A stretch of 64,000 bases of DNA from the IMG/VR virus record IMGVR_UViG_3300034155_000028. One strand, given 5' to 3'. Positions 6,909-62,588 of the stretch are shown here, one piece after another. Below the pieces are notes generated by a model, which was given only the letters and a program-made list of their open reading frames with translations, made no database searches and was not told where the DNA came from. Position numbers and translations under genes: made by a program. Positions within the stretch are counted from its first letter, which is position 1, and every line of letters begins with the position of its first letter. The DNA comes from an uncultured virus (IMG/VR IMGVR_UViG_3300034155_000028) (taxonomy: Duplodnaviria > Heunggongvirae > Uroviricota > Caudoviricetes).

Positions 6909-7235
6909 TTATATTAGGTCTAATTTAAATCTTTTAATAAATTCAGGTGATAATTTTTGACTGTATTTTAATATTCTCCAATCAACAAACGCGGAAAATT
7001 CTATTATAAATTCTTCGTTTAATTTTTGATGAGATGATATCTTAACCCAGTTTACTTTATTAAAATAATCTCTAATAAATTTTTCACTAAGCTTTTGATA
7101 TTTTGATATAGAATACCAATCTATGTTATGAGAATTTTCTCTAATAAATTTTTCACTTAACCCTTTGGTGCAGGATATTTCTAACCAGTCATTACAGTTG
7201 TTTTTTAAATCTTCTAATTGGTTTTTGGTTAGCAT
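6909..7235 (-). CDS. Tryptophan-repeat protein
   Basis: About 4 WxxIS.YQKLSE.FI repeats. Confidence 0.8.
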   Translation of the reverse strand: MLTKNQLEDLKNNCNDWLEISCTKGLSEKFIRENSHNIDWYSISKYQKLSEKFIRDYFNKVNWVKISSHQKLNEEFIIEFSAFVDWRILKYSQKLSPEFIKRFKLDLI

Positions 7236-7535
7236 AAGATATCCATTATAACAGCTGTAACACCTATTGATTTTAGATTACATATAATTTCATTTGCTTG
7301 TCCTTCTGAAATATCATATAATACTATTGTAGATATTTTATTTGTTATATCTTTAACTTCTTGAAGACTACATGATAATATCTTTCTGAGTTCTTTCATT
7401 AAGAGCACTTGATTTGTTCCAGTGTTTTTTATATATAAATGACATCTTGCATACCCTGTACCATCACCAAGATAAAAACTCTCCTCCATATCAATTGTAT
7501 AAGCACATGCAGTACTCATTTTAGTTATTGTTGTT

Positions 7536-7787
7536 TCATTTGACATAATAATTCACAATTTCTAGTTTGCACCCACACCATGGGTATACCACACCTCTAT
7601 TTGTTTTACAACATCTTTTAAAAAATGACATACATTGAGACTCCGGTCCTTCATTTGCTGCTTCACATCTAAAACATAATGCTTCACATCTCTCTCTCCT
7701 ATCCTGTTGTGTTAATTCTGCTGCTTCATATTTGTTTGATATTGTTAATATACATATTGTCAATAATATTTTTATTAAACTAATCAT
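7536..7787 (-). CDS. Small Cys-rich putatively secreted protein
   Basis: Hydrophobic N-terminus followed by 8 Cys. Confidence 0.5.
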   Translation of the reverse strand: MISLIKILLTICILTISNKYEAAELTQQDRRERCEALCFRCEAANEGPESQCMSFFKRCCKTNRGVVYPWCGCKLEIVNYYVK

Positions 7788-12051: not shown

Positions 12052-12882
12052 TCACGCCGTTTTCTTTTCTTTTTTAGCTTTTGAAATTGTTTCTTTAATA
12101 TTTTTCTTTGTTACCCCAGCACCAACTAAACTTTCTTTTAAGATTTTTTCTACTTCAGATGAACTAACTACTTCATTTGTTATTTTTTCAGAAACCAAAG
12201 TGGTTAGCTTATCAAAGAACAAATCATAATACTTGGAATGATCAAATGTGTCAACTGATAATTGATCTATTAACATTTGACCCATAGTCAAAAGCTCGGT
12301 TGATAGCGGAACCTTATCACACATATCATCAAAACTACGCACCTCACTACTGTAAAACATTTGGTGCATTACTAATCCATGTTGATAAGGACGAATAATA
12401 ACTAAACGATCCATACCCTTAGAAAACCAAGTACCAACCGCTGCCTTATTTGAATTTGAAAGCACTTGATATAATAATTGATAAACTGTATCCATACCTG
12501 TATCAGGACCAGTATAATAATTTTTCTCAATTGCAATAGGATCAATATCTGCAATTGAAATAAATTCTTCTAAATCAATTGTATCTTTCTGTGTTTGAAT
12601 ATTATCAATCTCTTCTTTAGTAAGGGTTACAAATTTATTCTTTTTATATTCATAACGCTTATCTGTATTTACTTCCTTGCTTTCAACAATTGGAATTTCT
12701 TTTACTTCTACTTCTGTAGTTGTTTCTAATACGGGTGTTTGCGTTATATTAGAATCAATTTGTTTGTTTGGTAAAGGCTTAGAGAACGAAACCTTTTGGG
12801 CCATACCAACAAGATAAAGCTTTAGATTAATAGTTGTTTGACCAAGAACTACAGATACTGTACCAACGCTTCGTGATGCCAT
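12052..12882 (-). CDS. ku: Prokaryotic Ku-like DNA end-binding protein
   Basis: MASRSVGTVSVVLG..INLKLY, YEY..KFVTLTKEEI, IDLEEFI..IDPI.IEKNYY.GPD, YQLL, RLVIIRP, EVRS, Y.D.F pattern. Confidence 0.88.
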   Translation of the reverse strand: MASRSVGTVSVVLGQTTINLKLYLVGMAQKVSFSKPLPNKQIDSNITQTPVLETTTEVEVKEIPIVESKEVNTDKRYEYKKNKFVTLTKEEIDNIQTQKDTIDLEEFISIADIDPIAIEKNYYTGPDTGMDTVYQLLYQVLSNSNKAAVGTWFSKGMDRLVIIRPYQHGLVMHQMFYSSEVRSFDDMCDKVPLSTELLTMGQMLIDQLSVDTFDHSKYYDLFFDKLTTLVSEKITNEVVSSSEVEKILKESLVGAGVTKKNIKETISKAKKEKKTA

Positions 12883-16047: not shown

Positions 16048-16133
16048 ATCAATCTTACCAGTAGATTCTAATCCTCAGCAAGGAAACAATATCTGCTACG
16101 CAGGCATGGAAGAATTGCTCTACTTTTTTTTTA

Positions 16134-17183
16134 TTATACTTTTATTCTTTCCACTTTCCATTTTACTATCCATCCTCTATATATCTCAATCTTTTCCTTG
16201 TCTATACTCTGTGATATTCTCTTCCCTTCTTCTAAATCATGTACAGATAATTTCCCGTCTATATTTCCTCCAATATAAGCATATATCTCTTTTTTCTTAT
16301 ATTTTACTTTTACTATTGTTCCCTTCGGAATTCCAAGAGATATTGTTCCTCCATATCTCTTTCTTTTTCCTCCTTTAGCAAACTGGAACATATGTAATTG
16401 TCTTCTATGTAATTCAATTTGCTCAAAATAATACATACTAATATTATCTGGATATGTTTGAATATTAAATGGGAAATTTGCCAACACCCAACTATCTACA
16501 TTATGGGCAGAAAATATTTTATCTAATTTCTTATTTGTTTTTTCTAAGTTTAAAGATTTTCTTTTTTCAGATGTTTCCCATCCTTTTTTCAAAATAAGAT
16601 TTCCATATTGTTTTAATATATTATAGAAATATTTCTTTCCAATTTCTAATGGTGAAAAATTCTTATTCCAATTTTTCTTTCCTTTTAATGTTTTAGCTTT
16701 TATATCTTCTACAATATATATCGATATTGGATATATTTTCCTTAATATATTTATTAATCTTAACTTTGAATTCCATCTTGCTCTTGTTGATGGTGGAATA
16801 AAATTTTTATTCTTCTTCCTATTTCGTTTATTCTTTTTATAAGGAGTTTTTCTAAATCTCCTTGATCTTCTCATGTATCTTCTAACCTCAACAGATTCTT
16901 TTACTCCTGTTCTAGCATTGGTTAAAATATTAATAAAAGTTTTATTCTTAGATTTAACAGTAATTGCTTCTCTTTTAGATCCTGAATCTATTCCACATGA
17001 TATCTCTTGAATATTTTCTTGAGATGGTTTTGATAATTTAAGATAACAAACACTATTTGTAAATTGTTTCTTAACTTTGTTTTGTTTAAGTAATTGTCTT
17101 GCTCTAGCAGGGTGACACGGCATAAGAGGATTTCCATTATAAGATATAATGGAAATCCAATGGTTGGAAGTTACCTTCCTCAC
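16134..17183 (-). CDS. isrB: IsrB-like RNA-guided RuvC nickase (RRXRR/PLMP family, no HNH), about 349 aa
   Basis: PLMPCHPARAR, RuvC-I GIDSG, Arg-rich bridge helix RRYMRRSRR, RuvC-II VEDIK, RuvC-III HNVDS; no HNH motif. GTG start at 17183 is preceded by GGAG; the ORF track extends to 17369. Confidence 0.85.
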   Translation of the reverse strand: MRKVTSNHWISIISYNGNPLMPCHPARARQLLKQNKVKKQFTNSVCYLKLSKPSQENIQEISCGIDSGSKREAITVKSKNKTFINILTNARTGVKESVEVRRYMRRSRRFRKTPYKKNKRNRKKNKNFIPPSTRARWNSKLRLINILRKIYPISIYIVEDIKAKTLKGKKNWNKNFSPLEIGKKYFYNILKQYGNLILKKGWETSEKRKSLNLEKTNKKLDKIFSAHNVDSWVLANFPFNIQTYPDNISMYYFEQIELHRRQLHMFQFAKGGKRKRYGGTISLGIPKGTIVKVKYKKKEIYAYIGGNIDGKLSVHDLEEGKRISQSIDKEKIEIYRGWIVKWKVERIKV

Positions 17184-17421
17184 GGATTGCTCCGGTAATT
17201 GCTCTCTTCGAGACTGATCATCATAGGGATTTCCAACTAGAGAAACATTAGAAATATATTTTTCCTTGCCACAGGAAGATGATTCAGTTTCCTTAATCTT
17301 CCTACTCTTACGAGCAGGAAGATCGGATACTCTAGTCATTGATTTAACTTGTTGTTTTGATTTTGGCATTAAACTACTCTAACAAGCCCTTCCAAGCTGT
17401 AAGCTTGGAAGGGTTTATGAC
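17165..17421 (-). ncRNA. omegaRNA/HEARO-like scaffold upstream of isrB
   Basis: Stems GTCAT/ATGAC, CCCTTCCAAGCT/AGCTTGGAAGGG, CTTGTT/AACAAG and ATCTTCCTGCTC-GTAA-GAGTAGGAAGAT; covaries with the copy at 54930..55206. Confidence 0.85.
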
Positions 17422-17665
17422 ACATCTGATTTAAGAATTTTGCTTTCTCTTTAGGATCTCCCATTACCAATTCCATCATTTCATTATCAGATATTCTATC
17501 TTCTGGAGATACTTGATCTAATTCATTGGCTTCATGAAAAGTAGCTATACCTAAATAACCTAATTCAGATAATGCATTTCCTACTTGTTCTAGAATTTTA
17601 GCAGGATTAGTAGACCTAGATATTACATAATCGGTGAATTGTGAAGATAGTTTGTAAATTCCCAT
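17369..17665 (-). CDS. Hypothetical; probable 5' half of the gene split by the IsrB element
   Basis: The last 17 codons (CHKPFQ...) are read from element sequence. Confidence 0.6.
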   Translation of the reverse strand: MGIYKLSSQFTDYVISRSTNPAKILEQVGNALSELGYLGIATFHEANELDQVSPEDRISDNEMMELVMGDPKEKAKFLNQMCHKPFQAYSLEGLVRVV

Positions 17666-21518: not shown

Positions 21519-24500
21519 TTAAATTTCCCAAATACTAGAAAATCTTTCACCTAATTGCTTCCGATATCTCACCAAGACTCTTTCCAAAACCCTATATGAA
21601 ACTTCATCTTCATCTCTTAAACAAAACCCAATCCATCTCGCTATGAATGCATCAGCCTTATTGAAACCAATTCCATCACGCGTCTCGGCTCCATCACACA
21701 CACTTACCATATACTCTAATGCACTCCGTAATATTTCCTTCTTCTGAGCAGTTAGCTTTGGTTCGGGTACTTTCTTAGCCTTCTCTGATTCACGTACTAA
21801 TACTCCTTGAAGTTTCTCAAGAGCTATCTCTCGTTCTACTTCATCTCCAGCTGAATTAATACGAGCCATCATTTCTTCATTTGTCTCTTCCATTATCGTA
21901 ACTTCAAGCCTTGGTGGAGGAGGATTTAGTTTAATACTTACTTCCAATGCTCTGTATGCAAGCTCTATTTTATGAGCAAGTAAGTTTTGAATGTGCCGAT
22001 CAAGCGCATGGCTCGAGCTCATTCTCATAATCAATACATGTTTACCTACAGCGCCAATGCGAACAAGCCTATCTTCCGCTTGAATATTCAATGATGGTAC
22101 CCATTCTAGATCCACAAATAACATATTTGTTGATCTTGTAAGTGTTACGCCCATACCGCCAACTTTAATGGTAAGAGCAATACCTTTTAGTTTGCCCTCT
22201 TGAAAGTCACGAACAGTATTGCGCCGTTCTTCAGCTTCGGTATCTCCGGTAATTATCTTCCAACCAATACGATCTTTCAATGCTTCAATAGGTGCTTTGT
22301 GAGCACTGAATATTACTAATGGAGTTTCAGATTCTTCATAACTCTCCACAATCTCCAGCATCGCTGGAATTCGAGACTCAGCTAACATGGCTCGAATCAA
22401 TGAAAATTCGCTGAAACTCGGAAGCTCTTCCAAATCCAGTTCTTCGTAATTAATATTCTTCTTACCAGTTGTTTTACTAAGAAGAGCATCAATTTTCTTT
22501 GTTAGAGATCCGTCACAATCCACCTCAATATCTTGGTAAATTTTTGGTGGAAGATCCTTCAATACTTCAGACTTAAGCCGTCGTAACATAACCCGACGCA
22601 TACGTTCGGGCGCTTCAGGAGATGGCATACCAAATTCATAACCACCCCATTGATTTTTATACCCATTAAACAATTGCAGAAAATTCTCCCAGCTACCAAA
22701 CACATTAATATTTCCAGCTGAAAGAACTCCAAACAAATCTTGGGGGCGATTCATCAATGGCGTTCCAGATAACGCCCATACCCGATTACATAGACGCGTT
22801 AGTTGTGAAACCTTTTGAGTTCTAGCTGCCTTATAATTTTTACAAAGATGAAATTCGTCCCCAATAAAATTAGCTTCACGAAGTGCCGTTTCTTGTTCAA
22901 TAGTTAGATTAGCAACTAAGATTGATTTTCCTTTTTGAGAAACCTTTCCACTATCCTTTGCTGGTGTAAGATAATTGGGAAGTATGTCGTAGTTACAAAT
23001 AACAATTTCACCAGGTTCAGGAATCTTAAATGGTATTGCTTTAGTTTTCTTACCCTCGGCAAGAGCCTTGGTAACTGTTTCTTCTTTTCCGTTACAGATT
23101 GTAACTCGATAACTTGGCCTCCACATTGCAATTTCGTCACGCCAATTGTATTTGAGTGTTGCTGGGCATATTACCAATACTCTTTCATTTTCAGGTAAAG
23201 CAACCAATGCCTGAACCGTGTTGTGTGTTAAAATTCCATTTTCACATGCGTAAAGATGATCAGACGCCGCAACACTAATACAAACAGATTCAACATCCCG
23301 CACATAACGAATACCTATTATACGTCTAGTTGGCTTGCTTTTATTTCCTGGAACATAACGCTCGCTCTTTCTTTTAATTCTAAATGGTAAAATTGTTTCT
23401 GGTAGTTTTATGCGCACATGATATTCTGTTGGCTTTCCCTCTTTTGTTCGGTCATATGTACAAATAGTTGCCAACCCTCCAAGCTCACACACCAACCTAC
23501 AAACATCTTTAGCCAAATTAGATGACGTAGAATTAAAAGATACCTTGTTTCTTGTTTTTGAACATGAACCATCAGTATCCATAAGCCCCTGTAATAGAGC
23601 AATTCGAGATTCTGGCGACCCAAAAAAATAGCGCTTTGGAATACTCTTTACAGGACTTGGAACATTAGCTCCAAGTTGCCTGATCAGACCAACAGCATTT
23701 TTAATTACAATACGAGTTGCTCCACCATATGTATGTACGGCTCCAATAGTGATGTTTTCTTTTTCAAGAAAATATATAAATTCATCTTTGTCTAACGAAT
23801 TAACAGTAAGAGTCGTTCCAGCGTCTGTTAAATATCCATTTCCAAGTAATGCTCCCATTGTATATGGAGGAATGATTAACTCATCAAGAGGTTTGAACAC
23901 TACAGCTCCAGATAGAATGGGTAAGTATAATCTTGTTTTGGAAAGATTTAGCTTACCAATCGATCTTCCTGGCCATTTTGTTTCAATAACATCGCCGGTG
24001 CGAATATTGTTTGTTGTTACTACAATACGATGTAATCTACGACCTCCAATGTAATAATCTACAGCCCAAAGATGTTCAGGTCCAGATTCAACCTCTAACC
24101 CATCACTAAAAGTTAGCGCGTAACTTGGTTTAATTCCTTGTGGGAAAACGCCAGTTACTATTGTTGGAAAGCCATCGGATCCAATAACATAATCCCCAAC
24201 AGATAATGTACCAATTTGAACAATACCATTTGGCGTAAGAACCAGCGTATCAATTGCCTGTTGCTTGCCGACACCCATGTCATCTCCCAATAAAGCTTTA
24301 TCATGTAAAGCCAGAAACTGAACCCCAACCTTTTGAAATGGAAATAATTGTTTTCCATTATACGTTTTGTTAGCCCTGATCTCTGCAGCTTTACTTTCTA
24401 CTGTTCCTTCTTTTGCTTTATCACGTAATGACTGAGGGACATCCAAAGATAATTGATCTGCAATTTCAACCACCCTTGGAAGATCACCTGGTTTTAAAGA

Positions 24501-24779
24501 ACATGACCATTGTTTTGTTTCAGGTATCCACTTAGCCCCAGGTAAAGATTTTAATAAAATAATTGACCCAGGATCGTATGGCATTATAATAAAACCGTCT
24601 TCTGTAATTTTACGTTCTTGTGGAGCGTTTGGATCTGGTAAACCAAGACGTTTAAAACAAGCAGATGAATTACATACCTTAATCCACTTCATACCTTGCT
24701 TAGCTGCAAATCCTTCATCTGCTGATAATTGCTTACTACAAGAAGTACATTTTCCAGCATAACGATTTTTAATTATCAT
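21519..24779 (-). CDS. SNF2-family (HARP/SMARCAL1-like) helicase/ATPase containing an intein
   Basis: FQKVGV, GDDMGVGK|T Walker A, ICPATLKYNW, DEFH, LSGTPLMN, RRLKSEVLKDLP, QAEDRLVRIG. Confidence 0.92.
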   Translation of the reverse strand: MIIKNRYAGKCTSCSKQLSADEGFAAKQGMKWIKVCNSSACFKRLGLPDPNAPQERKITEDGFIIMPYDPGSIILLKSLPGAKWIPETKQWSCSLKPGDLPRVVEIADQLSLDVPQSLRDKAKEGTVESKAAEIRANKTYNGKQLFPFQKVGVQFLALHDKALLGDDMGVGKQQAIDTLVLTPNGIVQIGTLSVGDYVIGSDGFPTIVTGVFPQGIKPSYALTFSDGLEVESGPEHLWAVDYYIGGRRLHRIVVTTNNIRTGDVIETKWPGRSIGKLNLSKTRLYLPILSGAVVFKPLDELIIPPYTMGALLGNGYLTDAGTTLTVNSLDKDEFIYFLEKENITIGAVHTYGGATRIVIKNAVGLIRQLGANVPSPVKSIPKRYFFGSPESRIALLQGLMDTDGSCSKTRNKVSFNSTSSNLAKDVCRLVCELGGLATICTYDRTKEGKPTEYHVRIKLPETILPFRIKRKSERYVPGNKSKPTRRIIGIRYVRDVESVCISVAASDHLYACENGILTHNTVQALVALPENERVLVICPATLKYNWRDEIAMWRPSYRVTICNGKEETVTKALAEGKKTKAIPFKIPEPGEIVICNYDILPNYLTPAKDSGKVSQKGKSILVANLTIEQETALREANFIGDEFHLCKNYKAARTQKVSQLTRLCNRVWALSGTPLMNRPQDLFGVLSAGNINVFGSWENFLQLFNGYKNQWGGYEFGMPSPEAPERMRRVMLRRLKSEVLKDLPPKIYQDIEVDCDGSLTKKIDALLSKTTGKKNINYEELDLEELPSFSEFSLIRAMLAESRIPAMLEIVESYEESETPLVIFSAHKAPIEALKDRIGWKIITGDTEAEERRNTVRDFQEGKLKGIALTIKVGGMGVTLTRSTNMLFVDLEWVPSLNIQAEDRLVRIGAVGKHVLIMRMSSSHALDRHIQNLLAHKIELAYRALEVSIKLNPPPPRLEVTIMEETNEEMMARINSAGDEVEREIALEKLQGVLVRESEKAKKVPEPKLTAQKKEILRSALEYMVSVCDGAETRDGIGFNKADAFIARWIGFCLRDEDEVSYRVLERVLVRYRKQLGERFSSIWEI
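23220..24263 (-). mobile_element. 348-aa intein with LAGLIDADG homing endonuclease and class 3 signature
   Basis: Inserted between K and T of Walker A; starts Q-QAIDT; block B EHLW; LAGLIDADG helices MGALLGNG and LQGLMDTDG; block F VCISV; ends THN followed by Thr. Confidence 0.88.
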
Positions 24780-31949: not shown

Positions 31950-32177
31950 TCACTGATTCTTTGGCCTTTGTGTAATAATACCATGTGTAACATCATATGG
32001 AGATACCGATACTTTAACCTTATCTCCAGGAATTACTCTGATTTTATTTAATTTCATTTTACCACATAGTCTGGCACGAATTGTCTGAGCGCTATCGGTT
32101 AAATCAATTGTATATTGACCACCGCCATCAGCAGACCTAAGAACTCCATCAAACTCAATTAAATCACCTTTGCTCAT
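31950..32177 (-). CDS. infA: Translation initiation factor IF-1 homologue
   Basis: MSKGDLIEFDGV...ARLCGKMKLNKIRVIPGDKVKVSVSPYDVTHGIIT; start taken at ATG 32177. Confidence 0.9.
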   Translation of the reverse strand: MSKGDLIEFDGVLRSADGGGQYTIDLTDSAQTIRARLCGKMKLNKIRVIPGDKVKVSVSPYDVTHGIITQRPKNQ

Positions 32178-33928
32178 TTTTATTTTCCTTTTAATTTTCG
32201 TTAACAAAAAACCACTTAGCACTAAAACATAATTCGAAATTCAAATAACATTGATTCCAAATTATTCCAAAATCTAAATTTGGAGCTTCTAATAATTTGC
32301 CATCAACTACTTTTAGAAATAGACCAAGATCTTCATCCAATGTATCTACAAGTCTACAATTAACAATCTTACCGTGTTGTAAATTATAAACAGCCAAATC
32401 CAAACTAATAGGATACATGTTAACTGTCTCTGTTTTATTAATTGCGCATGTTAATTCACGAATAACAAAATTTGACCATTTTTCATTGCCAAGAAATGAA
32501 GATTCTAACTCTCTTACTCCTGTCATTATTTTATGGGAATTAATTAACTCATCTTTATCATCAAGGTTTATCATATGTGATGCTTGTATATATGCTTGTT
32601 TACATTCATCAGCATATTTTTTAATATCTTTTTTACGATCAGCGGAAGTAGTAAGATCAATTAATCTGTTCCACGATGCTTGTGATTCTTTAATACATTT
32701 TTGTATATTTAACATTTATTTAATTACTCCAATTTCAAATTCTTCAATTGAATAATTGAAATGCATCCCATAACTATTAATATAATCAAACCATGTAATA
32801 AAATAATTGTTCCATTTTTTAACATTTAACTTTTCTGAATGAGATTCGTGATGTGCTCTAATCAAACATTGTTTCATATGACTAGGAAAATTATTATCAT
32901 CAAAAATAGATTGTGCAACCTGAGTCAATTCGTGAATTGCATCTTTATAACTATTGCACACAACACTATGAATAACACTGTCAATATTGTCCTGATAAGT
33001 ATACGCTAATACATACATTTTATTTTGTGTCTTTCTTTTTTAAATTTTGGTTACTGAACAATATTCTCCAAATTTATCAGCTAGCCATTCACCCAAACAA
33101 ACCTTAACATCAAATCTTGCCAATAAATAATCAATACTTTTGATAGCAATGCTACTAGAATTCCATCCAGTATCACGGCGATTCATTAAAAATAAATTAC
33201 CTTCATGATCCTTTCGAAGCACCGTATCTTTAAAAAGAATTAATTTCTTTGCATGAACTACATTCCCTGTTTCAAAATTATATTTTTCACCCAACATATC
33301 TGATAGTTGATTACAAACATCTTCAGGAGATGCTGCCAATTCATCACGTGCCCAATTCATCGCAGCGTCTCGAATCAAACAACGAGCTAACCGAATCGTA
33401 TCTTTTTGTGCTAATGTTAACATCTTATTTTCCTTGCTTCTCTGAGCACTTCATTATTAGCATCAAAGATAATTACCTTCTCTCCAAAATGTGCTTTTAC
33501 TACTCTTTTAAGATTTTTGGTAGCCCTACCCGTTTGGGCTACTCTAACCGTTTCAGCATGTATTTTTAGTTTATTACCATTCTCATCTTGTAAAGTATTG
33601 TCTTTTATATATATCTTAATCATTGTTCCTTGCTATTTTTACCAAAGAATTTTGTTTTGTATATTTTTATATAAAATTATTAATTAAACCAATCACTGTT
33701 AATATGAACAATATTATTATTACTGTTAATATCATTTTGTTTTATTGCTTTTTATAGTAAATTTTGGACCACACCAATTATTATATTGCTTCAATGTGAT
33801 ACATGCATCTTTACATAATGAATCAATATATATTCCCCATGCTTCCCTCTTTGCCGGCAAATCATTAGCTGGAATGGTTGGTAATATATGCGTTTTAAAA
33901 TGCTTAATTGCGTCTGTTTGTTTCATTT

Positions 33929-50836: not shown

Positions 50837-52106
50837 AAACTATTTATGAAATTAAATAATAGATATTAATTATTATAACTACCATTATAATAATCTCAAT
50901 CTCATGCTCCCTCTTTTTCTCTTGAATCTCCCTGGAATATACATGTTGGTCCAGTTCCAAACTATATCATAAATTGTTCGCTTGAAATTATCTTTAAGGA
51001 GGTGCTCTAATCATTTTTATATTTCTTTCAAATGATATTAAACGGAAAGCCTACTTCTCTCATACCTACTACCAAACTCTCATAAACACCATCTTTTAAA
51101 GCTATCTTGTCCGATAAATATAGTTCTCGAGACATTTTCTTTGAAGCTTCTTTATCTACTTCACACAGCATACCATGATATAAACACTTGTCATGAAATA
51201 TAGTATTTGTTAGTAGTTCGCTTGTCCAATCAATCTGGTATCCCTCACCAATATCTTCATCAAAATTAACTAGAGGTAAATCATCTTCATGTGAACAGCT
51301 ATAACTTTCTATAAATTTCTTGGTTTTACAGATTGCTTCTTTGCTTGCCCAATAAACACGAACACGACTCTTTCGTGCATTTTGTGTTGAATAAGCTATG
51401 AACTTATCATCTAAAAAATAAAACTGAGTACCAACCCATGTATCCGTACAATACCAACACTCTAACCAATAACTTACTAAATTTGTATTACCATTATCAC
51501 ATTTTTTATAATCAATATCTATACCAAATTCTTTTGCTAAAGTATCAATAGCATATAAATCAGGATTTTTCTTATTTATTCTTTCAATTACTTCTTTTAT
51601 TTTCATTTTACCAACTTACCAACAATGCCTGTATTAAAAGTGGGTATGTTGTTGAAATATCAAGGCCTGTTTGAAACCTTAATTGTTGCAAATATTCTTT
51701 AGTGTTATATATGTCTAAACCCAACTCGTCAAAAGCTTGCTTGGTGATTTTTACAGAACCTGCTTTGCAAGAAGCTTCTTTAATTATCTCAGCAATAGGT
51801 TTGTATAAATCATGCTGTTCTTGTTGTTGTTGCTTTAAAAACTTGTCGTAATTACATCTTGCAGTAAATGCGTCTATCATTTTTTTAATCCTATTTACAC
51901 AAATAAATTGCAGGAACTATACAATATTCAATTAATTTTCCCTGTATGTTTCCTTCAATTGTTTTACCACTACAGCTTTGGTTATCGAAAATACAATATT
52001 CTCTCTGATATGAATAACAACAGTTTTCTACTAAATATAATCCTGCCCATGGTATCGAATCACCTGTGCATTCTAACATTTTATTTTCTCCAAATAATTT
52101 GTTGTG

Positions 52107-52190
52107 TGGATCTTTCGAGACTTGAACTCGAATGACCTTTCGGTCGGCAGATTTTGAGTCTGCTGCGTATGCCAATTCCGCCAAAGATCC
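52107..52190 (-). tRNA. tRNA-Leu(CAA)
   Basis: Acceptor GGATCTT/AAGATCC, anticodon arm GCAGA-CTCAAAA-TCTGC, long variable arm, T arm TCGAG-TTCAAGT-CTCGA; CCA not encoded. Confidence 0.92.
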
Positions 52191-53378: not shown

Positions 53379-54438
53379 AGCTTAATTGCTTTTTTGATTG
53401 TTCCCTAACAATTCCTCTATCGTTGTTTCTGTACACTTACCACACAATAACTCTGTTGTTAGTTCTGTTACTTTATTTTCAATTTCTGTTTTTTGCTCTG
53501 GTGTCATTATATTTTCTAAAGCATCATCATATGTGGAACAAATATCTACCAAATCTTGTCGTACTAAATGATAAAAAGATGTTATGTTTTTCAGAAATAA
53601 ATTGTTTTGTTCTTCAGATAATGTTTCTGAAATTATTTTGTTACACCCAATAACAAATTTTACTTTATCCATTGAAATATATTTCAACCCCATCAAGCAT
53701 ACAACAACATGATCCAATATGATCTTTTGAAAAATTACACTTGCACTTTAATTGTGTTTTAGGATCAATATACATCTTTTGACATGCTACGATTTCATAA
53801 CATATCCTCTTTGTATTAGCAGAATAATTTCGTACGCTATTCAACAACCAATTAGGATCTTCTTCCATAAAAATATATTTAATTTCTTTGGTAAAATTAT
53901 TATTTGTTATATTAAATTTCTTATTCAAATCAAAGGGGCTTCTTTAGCGCTAATACCTAATTCTTGAGCGCGTTTAATAATTGCTACAATATCAGTTAAA
54001 GCATCCAATTGATAAGACATTCCATGGTCTCTTGCCTCTGCTGCCTTAACAGAAATATTTGATAAACATTGCCTAATTAGAATTTCGTATTCACGTTTTG
54101 TTATATCAATAACCTTAGCTTTCACTACATGAACAATTTGGAATATCCTCGTCTGGAGCTATATAAGCGTAATCTCCACATGAAGAACACTCCCACCATT
54201 TCCAATCATCAGGAATATCACCCTCAACAATTCCATCGGTTGGATAATTTGTTAGGTCTAGAGTCATAAAGGTGAATCTTTCTCTTGTATTGCTTCTTTC
54301 AACTGTTTATCAATCTCTTCCTGTACTTCGTTGGTCTCTCTTCCCCTGCATGCTTTAATCTGTCCATCAGAATCAAATCTCTTATCTTTTCGCATCCCAG
54401 CTTTGTGCATTTTATTCCTTGGTTTGTTATTTTTTTTG

Positions 54439-54512
54439 TGAGCCTAGTATGACTCGAACCTACAACTGCCAATTTAGAAAATTGGAACTCTATCCAATTG
54501 AGCTATAGACCC
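54439..54512 (-). tRNA. tRNA-Arg(TCT)
   Basis: Acceptor GGGTCTA/TAGGCTC, D arm GCTC/GAGT, CCAAT-TTTCTAA-ATTGG, T loop TTCGAGT (one T-stem mismatch). Confidence 0.8.
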
Positions 54513-54895
54513 AAATATTATTTACTCTACCTCTTTTTCTTTTAAATATTTCTCTATGTCTTTAAGACTATCTTCACTGATTTTCCATTCCCCATGCCTG
54601 TGTAAATGTCCCCCTAAACATATTCCCTTTATCGGATTCCCTTTATTGTTTCCCTTAAATGGATTCAATAAAAACGCCGCACTACAAGTCTCATAAGTCG
54701 TTATAACTACAGAATGATCCGCATACCTTAATTCATGAAATTCATGGTTTTGCCAATATATATCTTCCTCACTCATTGGGAATTTATTTCCATCCCCATC
54801 TATCATGTAATTATCTGTATCTTCCCCTATATACTCTACCATTATCTGTAAAGGATCTTGAGACATTATTTTAATCTTTCTTTGGTAAAATTAAA

Positions 54896-55206
54896 TATGA
54901 TTCCGGTACTTTCGTACCGAAATCATAAATGGAAGTTACCTTCCAGTCCAAATTATCTTGCGACAATTTGGATAATTGCTCTCTTCGAGACTGACTACCA
55001 TAGAGATTTCCAACTAGAGAAACATTAGAAATATATTTTTCCCTGCTACAGGAAGATGATTCAGTTTCCTGTATCTTTTTATTCTTACGAATAAAAAGAC
55101 CGGATACTCTAGTTATTGGTTTAACTTGTTTATACCTATTCTCTAGCAACAAGTAGGTTCTAACAAGCCCCTTCCAAATCTAACAGATTTTGAAAAGGGT
55201 TATAAC
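54896..55206 (-). ncRNA. Stand-alone omegaRNA copy (no nuclease gene) ending in a GAAA hairpin
   Basis: Homologous to 17165..17421 with compensatory changes; followed by TATGATTTCGGTAC-GAAA-GTACCGGAATCATA and a T-rich tract. Confidence 0.85.
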
Positions 55207-55315
55207 TGAGCTATAGGCCATTTGTTTTTTTTTTCTTTATTAAAATTAAACATGATTAGAATTATAACTAAACAGGATCTTTATCCTGTGTCATAACAAC
55301 CTCCTTTCTTATATG

Positions 55316-55399
55316 TGCTATCTCCGAGACTTGAACTCGGACGACCTTTCGGCCGGCAGATTTTGAATCTGCTGCGTCTGCCATTTCCGCCAAGATAGC
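55316..55399 (-). tRNA. tRNA-Leu(CAA), second copy
   Basis: Acceptor GCTATCT/AGATAGC, GCAGA-TTCAAAA-TCTGC, long variable arm, CCGAG-TTCAAGT-CTCGG. Confidence 0.92.
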
Positions 55400-56330
55400 T
55401 AATTCTTATCCCTTCATTATTCCCCAGACAACTATCGTCATAACTGAACATCCTAACATTATTCCCAATATTATTATACTCGGGAATATTACCTGGTCTA
55501 TTTTTTTAATCATAAAAATTCTTTTGTGTTTTTGGCATCTTACCATTAAAAACAGGCAAATCTTCTTTCTCTATCCTTATCCAATGTGTTGGCATATATT
55601 GTGAAGTAAAATACCTATCTTCAAATGGAATATATTCGGCCCATTTCAAACTTAAATCATCAGTTATATTACTAACAATTCCATACATAATACGACGACA
55701 ATATGTAAAAATTACATGAATTTGAAAATGTGGTCCGAATGATTCTCCTAACTCTCTTAGCTTGTGATATTCAGGACAATCTTCCAATGTCGGAGGATCT
55801 TTTTCAACGTCTCTCCACAATTCTTTTATCATATTTTTACCAAGAAATTACTATTCTATCAGAACTTATGTTTACGTTATAACCCAAATTAGTAAAATAC
55901 TTTTTGATTTTTTCCGATGTTTCAAGTATATTACTTATTCCAAACTCTACAAGTTCTTGGTCGAAAATGTTACAATGATCTTGGTTTAATTTTGCCTCTC
56001 GAATTATTTTTTCATTAACCCATTTTGCAAGACCTTCGTTTAAACTATCTGAAATTTCTCTCGCTTTTGTTGCTGTAATAATTTCCACTTTATTTCTCCA
56101 CAAAATAATGCTTTAAATTTCTCGGTATCTTTACCCCTCGCAACCTAGTAGATTTACTCAATACAAAATTTAGTTTTTGTGAAATAATAAAATCTAACTT
56201 CATATGTAAACCAGCAACATATACCAAATACTTTCTCATATCTCTAATATATCTATTTGGATTGTAATAATATTTATTAAGATATGGATTTGGGATTTGG
56301 CAAATGTTAAAATAATGTGTATTCATTTTA

Positions 56331-62486: not shown

Positions 62487-62508
62487 CTTATTTATCCTTT
62501 TCTACCTG

Positions 62509-62588
62509 TGCGTCTAGTAGGACTCGAACCTACGACTGCTTGATTCACTAGCTTCTGTCAAGAACTCTTCCGTCTGAGTTATAGACGC
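62509..62588 (-). tRNA. tRNA-like gene with an expanded 14-nt anticodon loop (identity undetermined)
   Basis: Perfect acceptor GCGTCTA/TAGACGC, D arm ACTC/GAGT, stem CTTGA/TCAAG, T arm GTAGG-TTCGAGT-CCTAC. Confidence 0.75.

Follow-up and report, generated by a model that had tools for sequence, protein, structure and literature searches.

A second, gene-less copy of an IsrB guide-RNA scaffold in the tRNA cluster of a large peat phage

A large phage from peat carries, besides the scaffold linked to its isrB gene, a second full-length copy of an IsrB guide-RNA scaffold. This copy, hereafter the orphan, is located at 55206–54930 on the minus strand, has no nuclease gene and lies about 38 kb from isrB in the same window, i.e. 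the whole 64-kb stretch of DNA that was analyzed. By its sequence features it is classed as a standalone omegaRNA of the IsrB type, such RNAs being already known as a kind. The stretch is best read as the left end of an IS200/IS605-type IsrB insertion element, a module made up of the guide position and the full scaffold. With a probability of roughly 55%, it is the remnant of an IsrB element that inserted at tRNA position 14|15, and possibly it is still usable in trans. After diverging from every sampled nuclease-linked copy, the scaffold has kept all of its pairs through six compensated changes.

Identity and structure of the orphan scaffold

The orphan forms a structured region of 277 nt. 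BLAST comparison of 54860–55260 with the window yields a 158-nt match with 88.6% identity to 17196–17353, inside the isrB-linked scaffold (copy 1, 17165–17421, minus strand, with its own guide position at 17441–17422), which was itself delimited by BLAST, alignment and nhmmer. Pairwise alignment of the two copies extends the homology over the whole scaffold. An nhmmer profile built from five isrB-linked copies only (copy 1 of the window and four from IMG/VR contigs), with the orphan left out, recovers it end to end (55206–54930, model positions 1–261 of 265, E 5.7e-59). BLAST, alignment and profile search all agree with the sequence-only reading, which had claimed a second IsrB scaffold copy without a nuclease gene, and together with the 60-pair model and the folding energy described below they establish the orphan's identity and completeness. 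Its homology to every isrB-linked copy ends after the GGAAGGTAACTTCCA hairpin, at the point where the IsrB N-terminus (..PLMPC..) of the others starts. The element holds no effector gene inside it, and the next open reading frame (ORF) is unrelated and is also present in a relative that lacks the cassette. Neither scaffold copy was matched by the Rfam library, HEARO included, at the gathering threshold or at E values up to 10, so the omegaRNA label rests on position, structure and protein homology rather than on a curated model. The cmsearch with HEARO models that the sequence-only reading had proposed as a check thus returned nothing for either copy, while the omegaRNA identity stood by these other routes. 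Logan contigs of run X1, which contains the window and is its probable source, stop inside the scaffold (at 54959 and 55013), so that continuity through the conserved core depends on the original assembly. No copy diverges further than the orphan, which is 75–82% identical to the others, against 84–93% among those themselves. It is nearest to the copies of the Lys type defined below (81–82% versus 75–77% identity), and an extra 3' hairpin is common to the orphan and the Lys subtype.

A ten-helix model drawn on the alignment of seven sequences has 60 pairs, in which 99.3% of 412 cells are paired and nine pairs have changed on both sides; none of 500 shuffles scored as high, and slid controls were 33–53% paired. 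In the orphan none of the 60 pairs is broken, and five stem pairs are doubly compensated, all of them unique to it. The compensatory stems described earlier from the letters alone are borne out, both the change of GTCAT/ATGAC to GTTAT/ATAAC and the 12-bp GTAA hairpin with three pairs changed on both sides, as is the broader claim of structure-preserving evolution, seen as covariation among the seven copies. Relatives with random decay of the scaffold beside a simply disrupted tRNA had been named at the time as a finding that would speak against a maintained RNA; the orphan's own scaffold is not decaying. Its 28 consensus G-C pairs comprise 19 that are unchanged, five changed on both sides, four that have become G-U and none that is broken, and the remaining 32 pairs are all unchanged. 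All five G-to-A changes fall within the nine pairs with a C-to-U change (hypergeometric p ~0.001, by arithmetic from the pair counts). Among the columns invariant in the other six copies, the orphan differs at 10 of the 102 that are paired and at 15 of the 97 that are not, the ten paired changes amounting to five complete swaps of C-G to U-A. Its MFE z-score is -7.9. A candidate loop-loop pseudoknot between columns 70–74 and 170–174 is paired in 35 of 35 cells, a score reached by 75 of 500 shuffles with n=7 sequences; in the orphan it has passed from UGCCA/UGGCA to UGCUA/UAGCA, one double change with pairing kept, and the support from seven sequences is suggestive only. For the IsrB omegaRNA in general, an adaptor and a nexus pseudoknot are described (Hirano 2022).

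This pattern argues that the orphan's branch evolved under selection for RNA structure, whether the changes preceded or followed the loss of isrB. Over 55078–55095, every other contig in four metagenome runs has the consensus variant and none has the orphan's hairpin variant, so the changes may postdate the loss. Changes of that date may mean that selection acted on the orphan RNA itself.

The tRNA stub, the surrounding locus and its relatives

On the minus strand, the upstream neighbor is an intact, predicted tRNA-Leu (CAA) at 55315–55399. Right behind it, at 55270–55313, a strong ribosome-binding site (AAGAAAGGAGG) is followed by an ATG with eight codons whose end forms a 7-bp hairpin; this segment looks like the stump of another gene, and the spacer like a patchwork. 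The cassette proper, about 350–420 nt, lies between two copies of a short regulatory repeat. The upstream copy (55221–55257), recognized by its likeness to the 5'UTR of the next ORF, consists of AATCATGTTTAATTTTA and an A-rich leader, and matches that 5'UTR at 16 of 17 positions and then at 31 of 39 through the ATG, with an equal 19-nt spacing. It is followed by the tRNA 5' stub (55207–55220), the scaffold and a terminator-like hairpin at 54927–54896, which has 14 pairs (5 G-C, one G-U), a GAAA loop and the tail TTTAATTTTA, and whose T-rich tail runs to 54886. The hairpin, noted before as the orphan's own 14-bp GAAA hairpin plus T-rich tract and confirmed here, occupies the position at which isrB starts in other copies. 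A second AATCATATTTAATTTTA follows the hairpin and T-rich tail, and then come the 5'UTR and the ORF. This downstream repeat copy (54864–54902) is the real 5'UTR plus ATG of a 114-aa ORF (54522–54866), and homology to the cassette-less relative starts at 54893. The ORF has no Pfam family and is a neighbor outside the cassette, shared by that relative. Next is an intact tRNA-Arg (TCT) at 54438–54512, on the same strand, with ATTG after A14. A search for a sigma-70-like promoter from the upstream hairpin to the stub gave none. The stub is 94 nt away from tRNA-Leu and not adjacent to it, so several events are needed, and a one-step insertion into the relative's arrangement is insufficient. A search of IMG/VR gave no relative of the 114-aa ORF and no exact match of a tRNA-Arg 22-mer, and blastn in distant mode against GenBank phages gave 14 matching records, each of them by its tRNA-Leu alone, with no relative of the locus. 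The window has two tRNA-Leu (CAA) genes 3 kb apart (52106–52190 and 55315–55399) with unlike acceptor stems, and in tRNA-Ser (AGA) at 62508–62588 (ARAGORN) the anticodon region holds 13 positions versus six in the Rfam model and may contain an intron or an expanded loop.

The guide position of the orphan is occupied by TGGCCTATAGCTCA, corresponding to tRNA positions 1–14 as had been proposed. At least 119 IMG/VR stretches contain the motif GGCCTATAGCTCAG, and for 101 of the 119 listed a tRNA begins one or two bases upstream, which marks the 14-mer as a genuine tRNA 5' end by sequence. These 101 listed starts belong to Met-CAT (78), Asn (14), Ala (4), Ile (4) and Ser (1), and the motif is preceded by G in 84 of them, by T in 16 and by A in one. 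The last ten nucleotides of the stub equal positions 5–14 of the tRNA-Arg beginning at 54512, as stated earlier, and overall 12 of 14 bases are identical. ARAGORN and the Rfam tRNA model detect no tRNA at 55207–55220, where only positions 1–14 are present, and the absence of a matching tRNA 3' half holds anywhere in the 64-kb window. A 20-nt guide would be 55226–55207, of which the 14 nt proximal to the target-adjacent motif (TAM) are tRNA-like and the remainder is A-rich leader. In three sister contigs the guide 14-mer has one match with two mismatches, in a coding region and not in a tRNA.

Sequences from other runs reveal the same locus in a different state. A 761-nt contig of run X2 covers 54432–54893 and 55314–55525 (462 and 212 nt), and 78 other letters replace the 420 nt between them (54894–55313), that is, the cassette together with the upstream patchwork of mini-ORF with ribosome-binding site and 7-bp hairpin (55289–55272). 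With flanks about 92–93% identical to the window, the contig comes from a related phage without the cassette. The cassette is therefore a with/without polymorphism between related wild phages. In run X4, a 151-nt contig departs from the window at that very base (54893) and ends in 13 loose letters, TATTGTGGACCTA (plus strand), which on the gene strand read as seven bases, then A, C and AATA; in each of the window's four tRNAs, too, the acceptor strand is followed by A, C and an A-rich spacer. At about 78 nt, the length of a tRNA with five further nucleotides is that of the X2 replacement. The X4 end and the 78-nt size are consistent with an intact tRNA in that slot in relatives, and the acceptor deduced from the seven X4 letters would differ from the stub at two of seven positions. 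The sequence-only reading had pointed to related phages as the place to look for an intact tRNA: absence of the cassette is observed there, and the tRNA is putative, being drawn from a length and 13 letters.

The IsrB family, its TAM and the origin of the orphan

The isrB gene (16134–17369, minus strand; Pfam RRXRR, 2.8e-31) has a frame open from an ATG inside the scaffold, and its region homologous to DtIsrB (8DMB) begins near 17150. The product matches DtIsrB over residues 2–332 (E 2.1e-29) and has the PLMP N-terminus, split RuvC motifs (D, E, H/D), no HNH, a TAM-interaction domain and an R..Q pair. An intact IsrB homologue is encoded 38 kb from the orphan, the distance given earlier. Behind the gene lies the conserved right-end hairpin of the element (16060–16120). 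It is the only such sequence in the window, and no right-end sequence accompanies the orphan, the sole right-end-like sequence being that at 16120. In all five isrB-linked copies (window 16134–17369, L016, L018, L020, L021) the frame is open from an in-scaffold ATG about 70 codons before PLMP, no ATG, GTG or TTG occurs near the PLMP motif, and a 12-nt indel between the scaffold subtypes keeps the frame. Variable columns of this frame inside the scaffold have no third-position excess, so the stretch evolves as RNA, and the helix-1 ATG was dropped as a constrained isrB start codon for the same reason. Elsewhere in the window, a 1086-aa SNF2-type helicase (21519–24779) has a LAGLIDADG_3 domain (residues 392–457) between its helicase halves, probably an intein or inserted homing endonuclease. 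A microbial PARG (376–1179), a ribosomal L7/L12 C-terminal domain protein (7229–7546), Ku (12052–12882) and an IF-1/eIF-1A-like protein (31950–32222) are cell-like genes typical of very large phages.

Relatives of the scaffold were found only in IMG/VR contigs of one sample series, three sister contigs that CheckV rates as 12–25% complete at 54–131 kb, from which the whole genome of this phage probably measures several hundred kb. The first, G001 (67.8 kb), has three isrB-linked scaffolds and G002 (54 kb) has one, and in G003 (131 kb) the scaffold is cut at column 219 (after position 203) and isrB is absent. The isrB of G002 (L006, 3001–4100) is a decaying copy, with a frameshift after about 245 codons and continuation in another frame. 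An 18-mer of the scaffold core retrieved eight IMG/VR and 25 metagenome loci, and nhmmer run on these 33 loci plus the window found full or long scaffolds in five only, all from IMG/VR (L016, L018–L021). Two metagenome loci gave weak partial matches (E 7.6e-4), and the rest were rejected as chance. Summed contig depth over the scaffold (54876–55143) is 87–166 in run X1 and 44–59 in run X2, with flanks at 11 and 7, so the scaffold family is present in many copies or genomes of these peat communities. A search of 185,579 species genomes gave no close relative of the IsrB and hence no clue to the host. The seven copies share a single first base of homology (GTYATAA), upstream of which their flanks are unrelated, so the 5' flank is the insertion site. 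For copy 1, a fused homologue of the flanking ORFs, as expected of an empty site, was not found in the three sister contigs or in the protein collection.

Structural work on DtIsrB indicates how the TAM is read: R323 contacts base 3 (G) and Q326 base 4 (A) (Hirano 2022, PMC9581776), and the same source reports that the wild type cuts TTGA and ATGA and not TTGG or ATGG, and that Q326R accepts G. By alignment, the residues at these two positions are R..Q in the window's IsrB and in G001_b, and R..K in G001_a and G001_c. The Lys-type copy G001_a has the right-end tail CATCTTG followed by the flank ATGG, and the Gln-type copy G001_b has CATTTCAA followed by ATGA. The G002 copy, of the same scaffold subtype as the Gln copies and with a frameshifted isrB, has CGTTAAG followed by GTGA. 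Copy 1 of the window, also of the Gln type, has GAGGATT followed by AGAA and does not fit. Thus NTGA or NTGG stands 7–8 nt after CTTGCT in three of the four copies that bear a right end, against a background of 1.4–1.6% of positions for each motif in these sequences. The fourth base fits Gln (A) or Lys (G) where the protein is readable, GTGA of G002 being matched to scaffold type only. The TAM would accordingly be NTGA for the Gln type and NTGG for the Lys type, directly 3' of the element, and an empty site would consist of the guide match plus the TAM.

Applied to tRNA genes, this predicted rule separates the resident enzyme from the orphan's guide. In the 119 viral matches listed, the 4 nt after A14 are GTTG in 71, GTGG in nine and NTGA in none, and they are ATTG in the phage's own tRNA-Arg. 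With NTGA never following A14, ordinary tRNA genes are not expected to be targets of the resident Gln-type IsrB with the orphan's guide; the minority that have A14-G-U-G-G would be open to a Lys-type enzyme. The sequence-only reading had proposed to look for tRNA genes that match the guide and for a shared 3' TAM: a match to a widespread tRNA start was found, and among the listed matches a TAM of the resident type was not. Across the 64 kb covered, the resident IsrB goes with another scaffold subtype than the Lys one nearest the orphan and reads the TAM with Gln. The orphan's affinity is in keeping with a Lys-type element as the one that first inserted at tRNA position 14|15.

A separate observation concerns the three scaffold copies without a right end (G001_c, G003 and the orphan), each of which is flanked by a direct repeat of its 5' flank. 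The repeat of G001_c (L021, ~2330–2367 and about 1320 nt downstream) spans 38 nt with three mismatches and scores 30 versus 8.7 +/- 1.1 in shuffles. That of G003 (L019, 2361–2371 and 2593–2603) spans 11 nt, with 13 of 200 shuffles as high, and that of the orphan (55257–55241 and 54902–54886) spans 17–39 nt, with one of 200 shuffles as high. Behind the downstream repeat copy of G001_c and G003 stand, in register, ATGG and GTGA, which are the TAMs that the rule predicts. The four copies with a right end have no such repeat of the 5' flank. This suggests that the right-end-less copies arose by recombination at a guide-matching target rather than by transposase action.

Under the preferred reading, a remnant of an insertion into a tRNA gene, an IsrB element would have entered a phage tRNA gene between positions 14 and 15, with U-G-G of the D-loop serving as the NTGG-type motif beside which the element lands. 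It would later have lost isrB, its right end and the 3' part of the tRNA, and have stayed as a cassette between two copies of the regulatory repeat, within a patchwork part of the tRNA cluster. Recombination at the bracketing 17-nt repeat (16/17 identical) may have brought the cassette in or removed it from the relative. It may be that the RNA is still being transcribed and is loaded by an IsrB from another place in the genome; its guide would be the old insertion flank, as in every OMEGA element, rather than a purpose-built guide against tRNAs. The insertion point, the TAM rule and the order of losses are what we infer from the compared copies. Decay is common in the family, as the cut scaffold of G003 and the frameshifted isrB of G002 illustrate, and the window has no TnpA but does have Ku, which is compatible with scars of recombination or end joining. 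Some features speak against a mere relic: the orphan has no broken pair, unlike a decaying relic, and a strong terminator cleanly replaces isrB, giving a discrete transcription unit. A relic of insertion into a tRNA gene had been the second choice of the sequence-only reading; it fits better than the maintained guide then preferred, with the qualifications that the scaffold is undecayed and that the relative's tRNA is putative.

The principal competing explanation, which is tentative and considerably less probable than even, is a gene-less homing cassette. The RNA would be loaded in trans by the phage's IsrB, the complex would nick the uninterrupted tRNA allele of co-infecting relatives, and repair would copy the cassette across. 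The orphan would then ride on IsrB as a selfish element, with PATE elements or collaborative homing as parallels. Structure-preserving evolution unique to the orphan and the lack of a sibling with the same variants in four runs speak for such a cassette. The intact IsrB of the window is catalytically plausible from its sequence, the cassette is an indel polymorphism between close relatives with a possible tRNA in the empty allele, and standalone omegaRNAs are stated to act in trans (PMC10691335, PMC9581776). The resident IsrB, however, is of the Gln type with predicted NTGA, and the best that the D-loop of a tRNA provides is NTGG. The acceptor of the putative tRNA in the X4 relative would depart from the stub at two of seven positions, the homology on the right side (the 3' part of the tRNA) has not been kept, and no sigma-70-like promoter precedes the stub downstream of the upstream hairpin. 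Its more specific form, a self-propagating cassette that nicks the D-loop with the near-universal U-G18-G19 as a ready-made TAM and is copied over the tRNA by repair, is unlikely and somewhat more so than homing in general.

That the orphan is instead a maintained tool of the phage, which directs IsrB to tRNA genes of the host, of competing phages or at integration sites, was the first choice of the sequence-only reading and now appears very unlikely. An intact scaffold with its own terminator, a 14-mer that matches a very widespread tRNA start and the precedent of SegB, a phage endonuclease against tRNA genes (PMC13565253) to which such a tool would be analogous, would all suit such a role. 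Only 14 of about 20 guide positions are tRNA-like, however, the rest being A-rich leader; the bases after A14 in the listed matches (GTTG 71/119, GTGG 9/119, NTGA 0/119) do not match the TAM predicted for the resident enzyme; and the module is absent from a close relative. IsrB being a nickase, a single nick in a multi-copy tRNA gene would presumably be a weak weapon. The 5' flank of these elements is the insertion site, and the claim of an RNA aimed at host or competitor tRNA genes is not supported. The least probable explanation, with only a slight chance of being right, is that the flank is the start of a small-protein gene (ATG GCC TAT AGC TCA..) hit by the insertion and that its likeness to a tRNA is fortuitous. 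The stub does begin inside an ATG exactly 19 nt after TTTAATTTTA, the spacing found in the neighboring ORF's 5'UTR (31/39 identical), the same type of UTR recurs before ORFs in a sister contig, and, scored simply as a repeat within 2.5 kb, the 10-mer common to the stub and tRNA-Arg does not exceed shuffled controls. Yet of the 14-mer's listed occurrences in viral contigs, 85% coincide exactly in register with the start of a tRNA, and a UTR-like repeat can simply end at the ATG; the shared ATG register indicates that the stub abuts a duplicated UTR copy.

Significance and comparison with known systems

A full-text literature search found no paper on IsrB elements in phage tRNA genes. Activity in trans would make the orphan a minimal homing element that consists of RNA only, and an example from nature of an IsrB nickase re-targeted by a second guide; if inert, it is an ordinary scar of a mobile element in a phage tRNA cluster. 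Should the homing explanation hold, tRNA genes would be natural landing pads for IsrB elements in phages. The sequence-based TAM rule (NTGA for Gln, NTGG for Lys) is open to a bench check in either case.

Standalone omegaRNAs (Altae-Tran et al. 2021) are the closest kind. They are stated in PMC10691335 and PMC9581776 to work in trans, in line with what the sequence-only reading had stated, and PMC10691335 gives their biological role as unknown. As described in these two sources, they share with the orphan a scaffold with its own guide, the lack of an effector gene and a related effector in the same genome. The orphan differs in being of the IsrB type, in residing in a large phage and in having a tRNA stub as its guide. 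PATE-like IS200/IS605 elements, as described by Meers et al. (2023, 10.1101/2023.03.14.532601), are likewise protein-less elements that keep a guide RNA while the nuclease is encoded elsewhere. PATEs keep both transposon ends, whereas the orphan consists of left end and scaffold only, and lacking a right end it can probably no longer be mobilized by a transposase.

The resident system resembles DtIsrB–omegaRNA (8DMB; PMC9581776) in having a full-length protein homologue (E 2e-29) with the R..Q pair that reads the TAM, and its RNA, like that described for DtIsrB, has the guide at the 5' end, a length of about 260–280 nt and a multi-helical fold, here with a candidate loop-loop pseudoknot. It differs from the DtIsrB omegaRNA in that no RNA match exists at the level of sequence or Rfam, and in that the isrB frame is open far into the scaffold. 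A functional parallel is offered by SegB of phage T4, which PMC13565253 describes as a phage-borne nuclease with its target in a tRNA region and a bias of inheritance in co-infection. SegB is free-standing, recognizes its site through protein and makes a double-strand cut, whereas the orphan would be RNA-guided and would act with a nickase.
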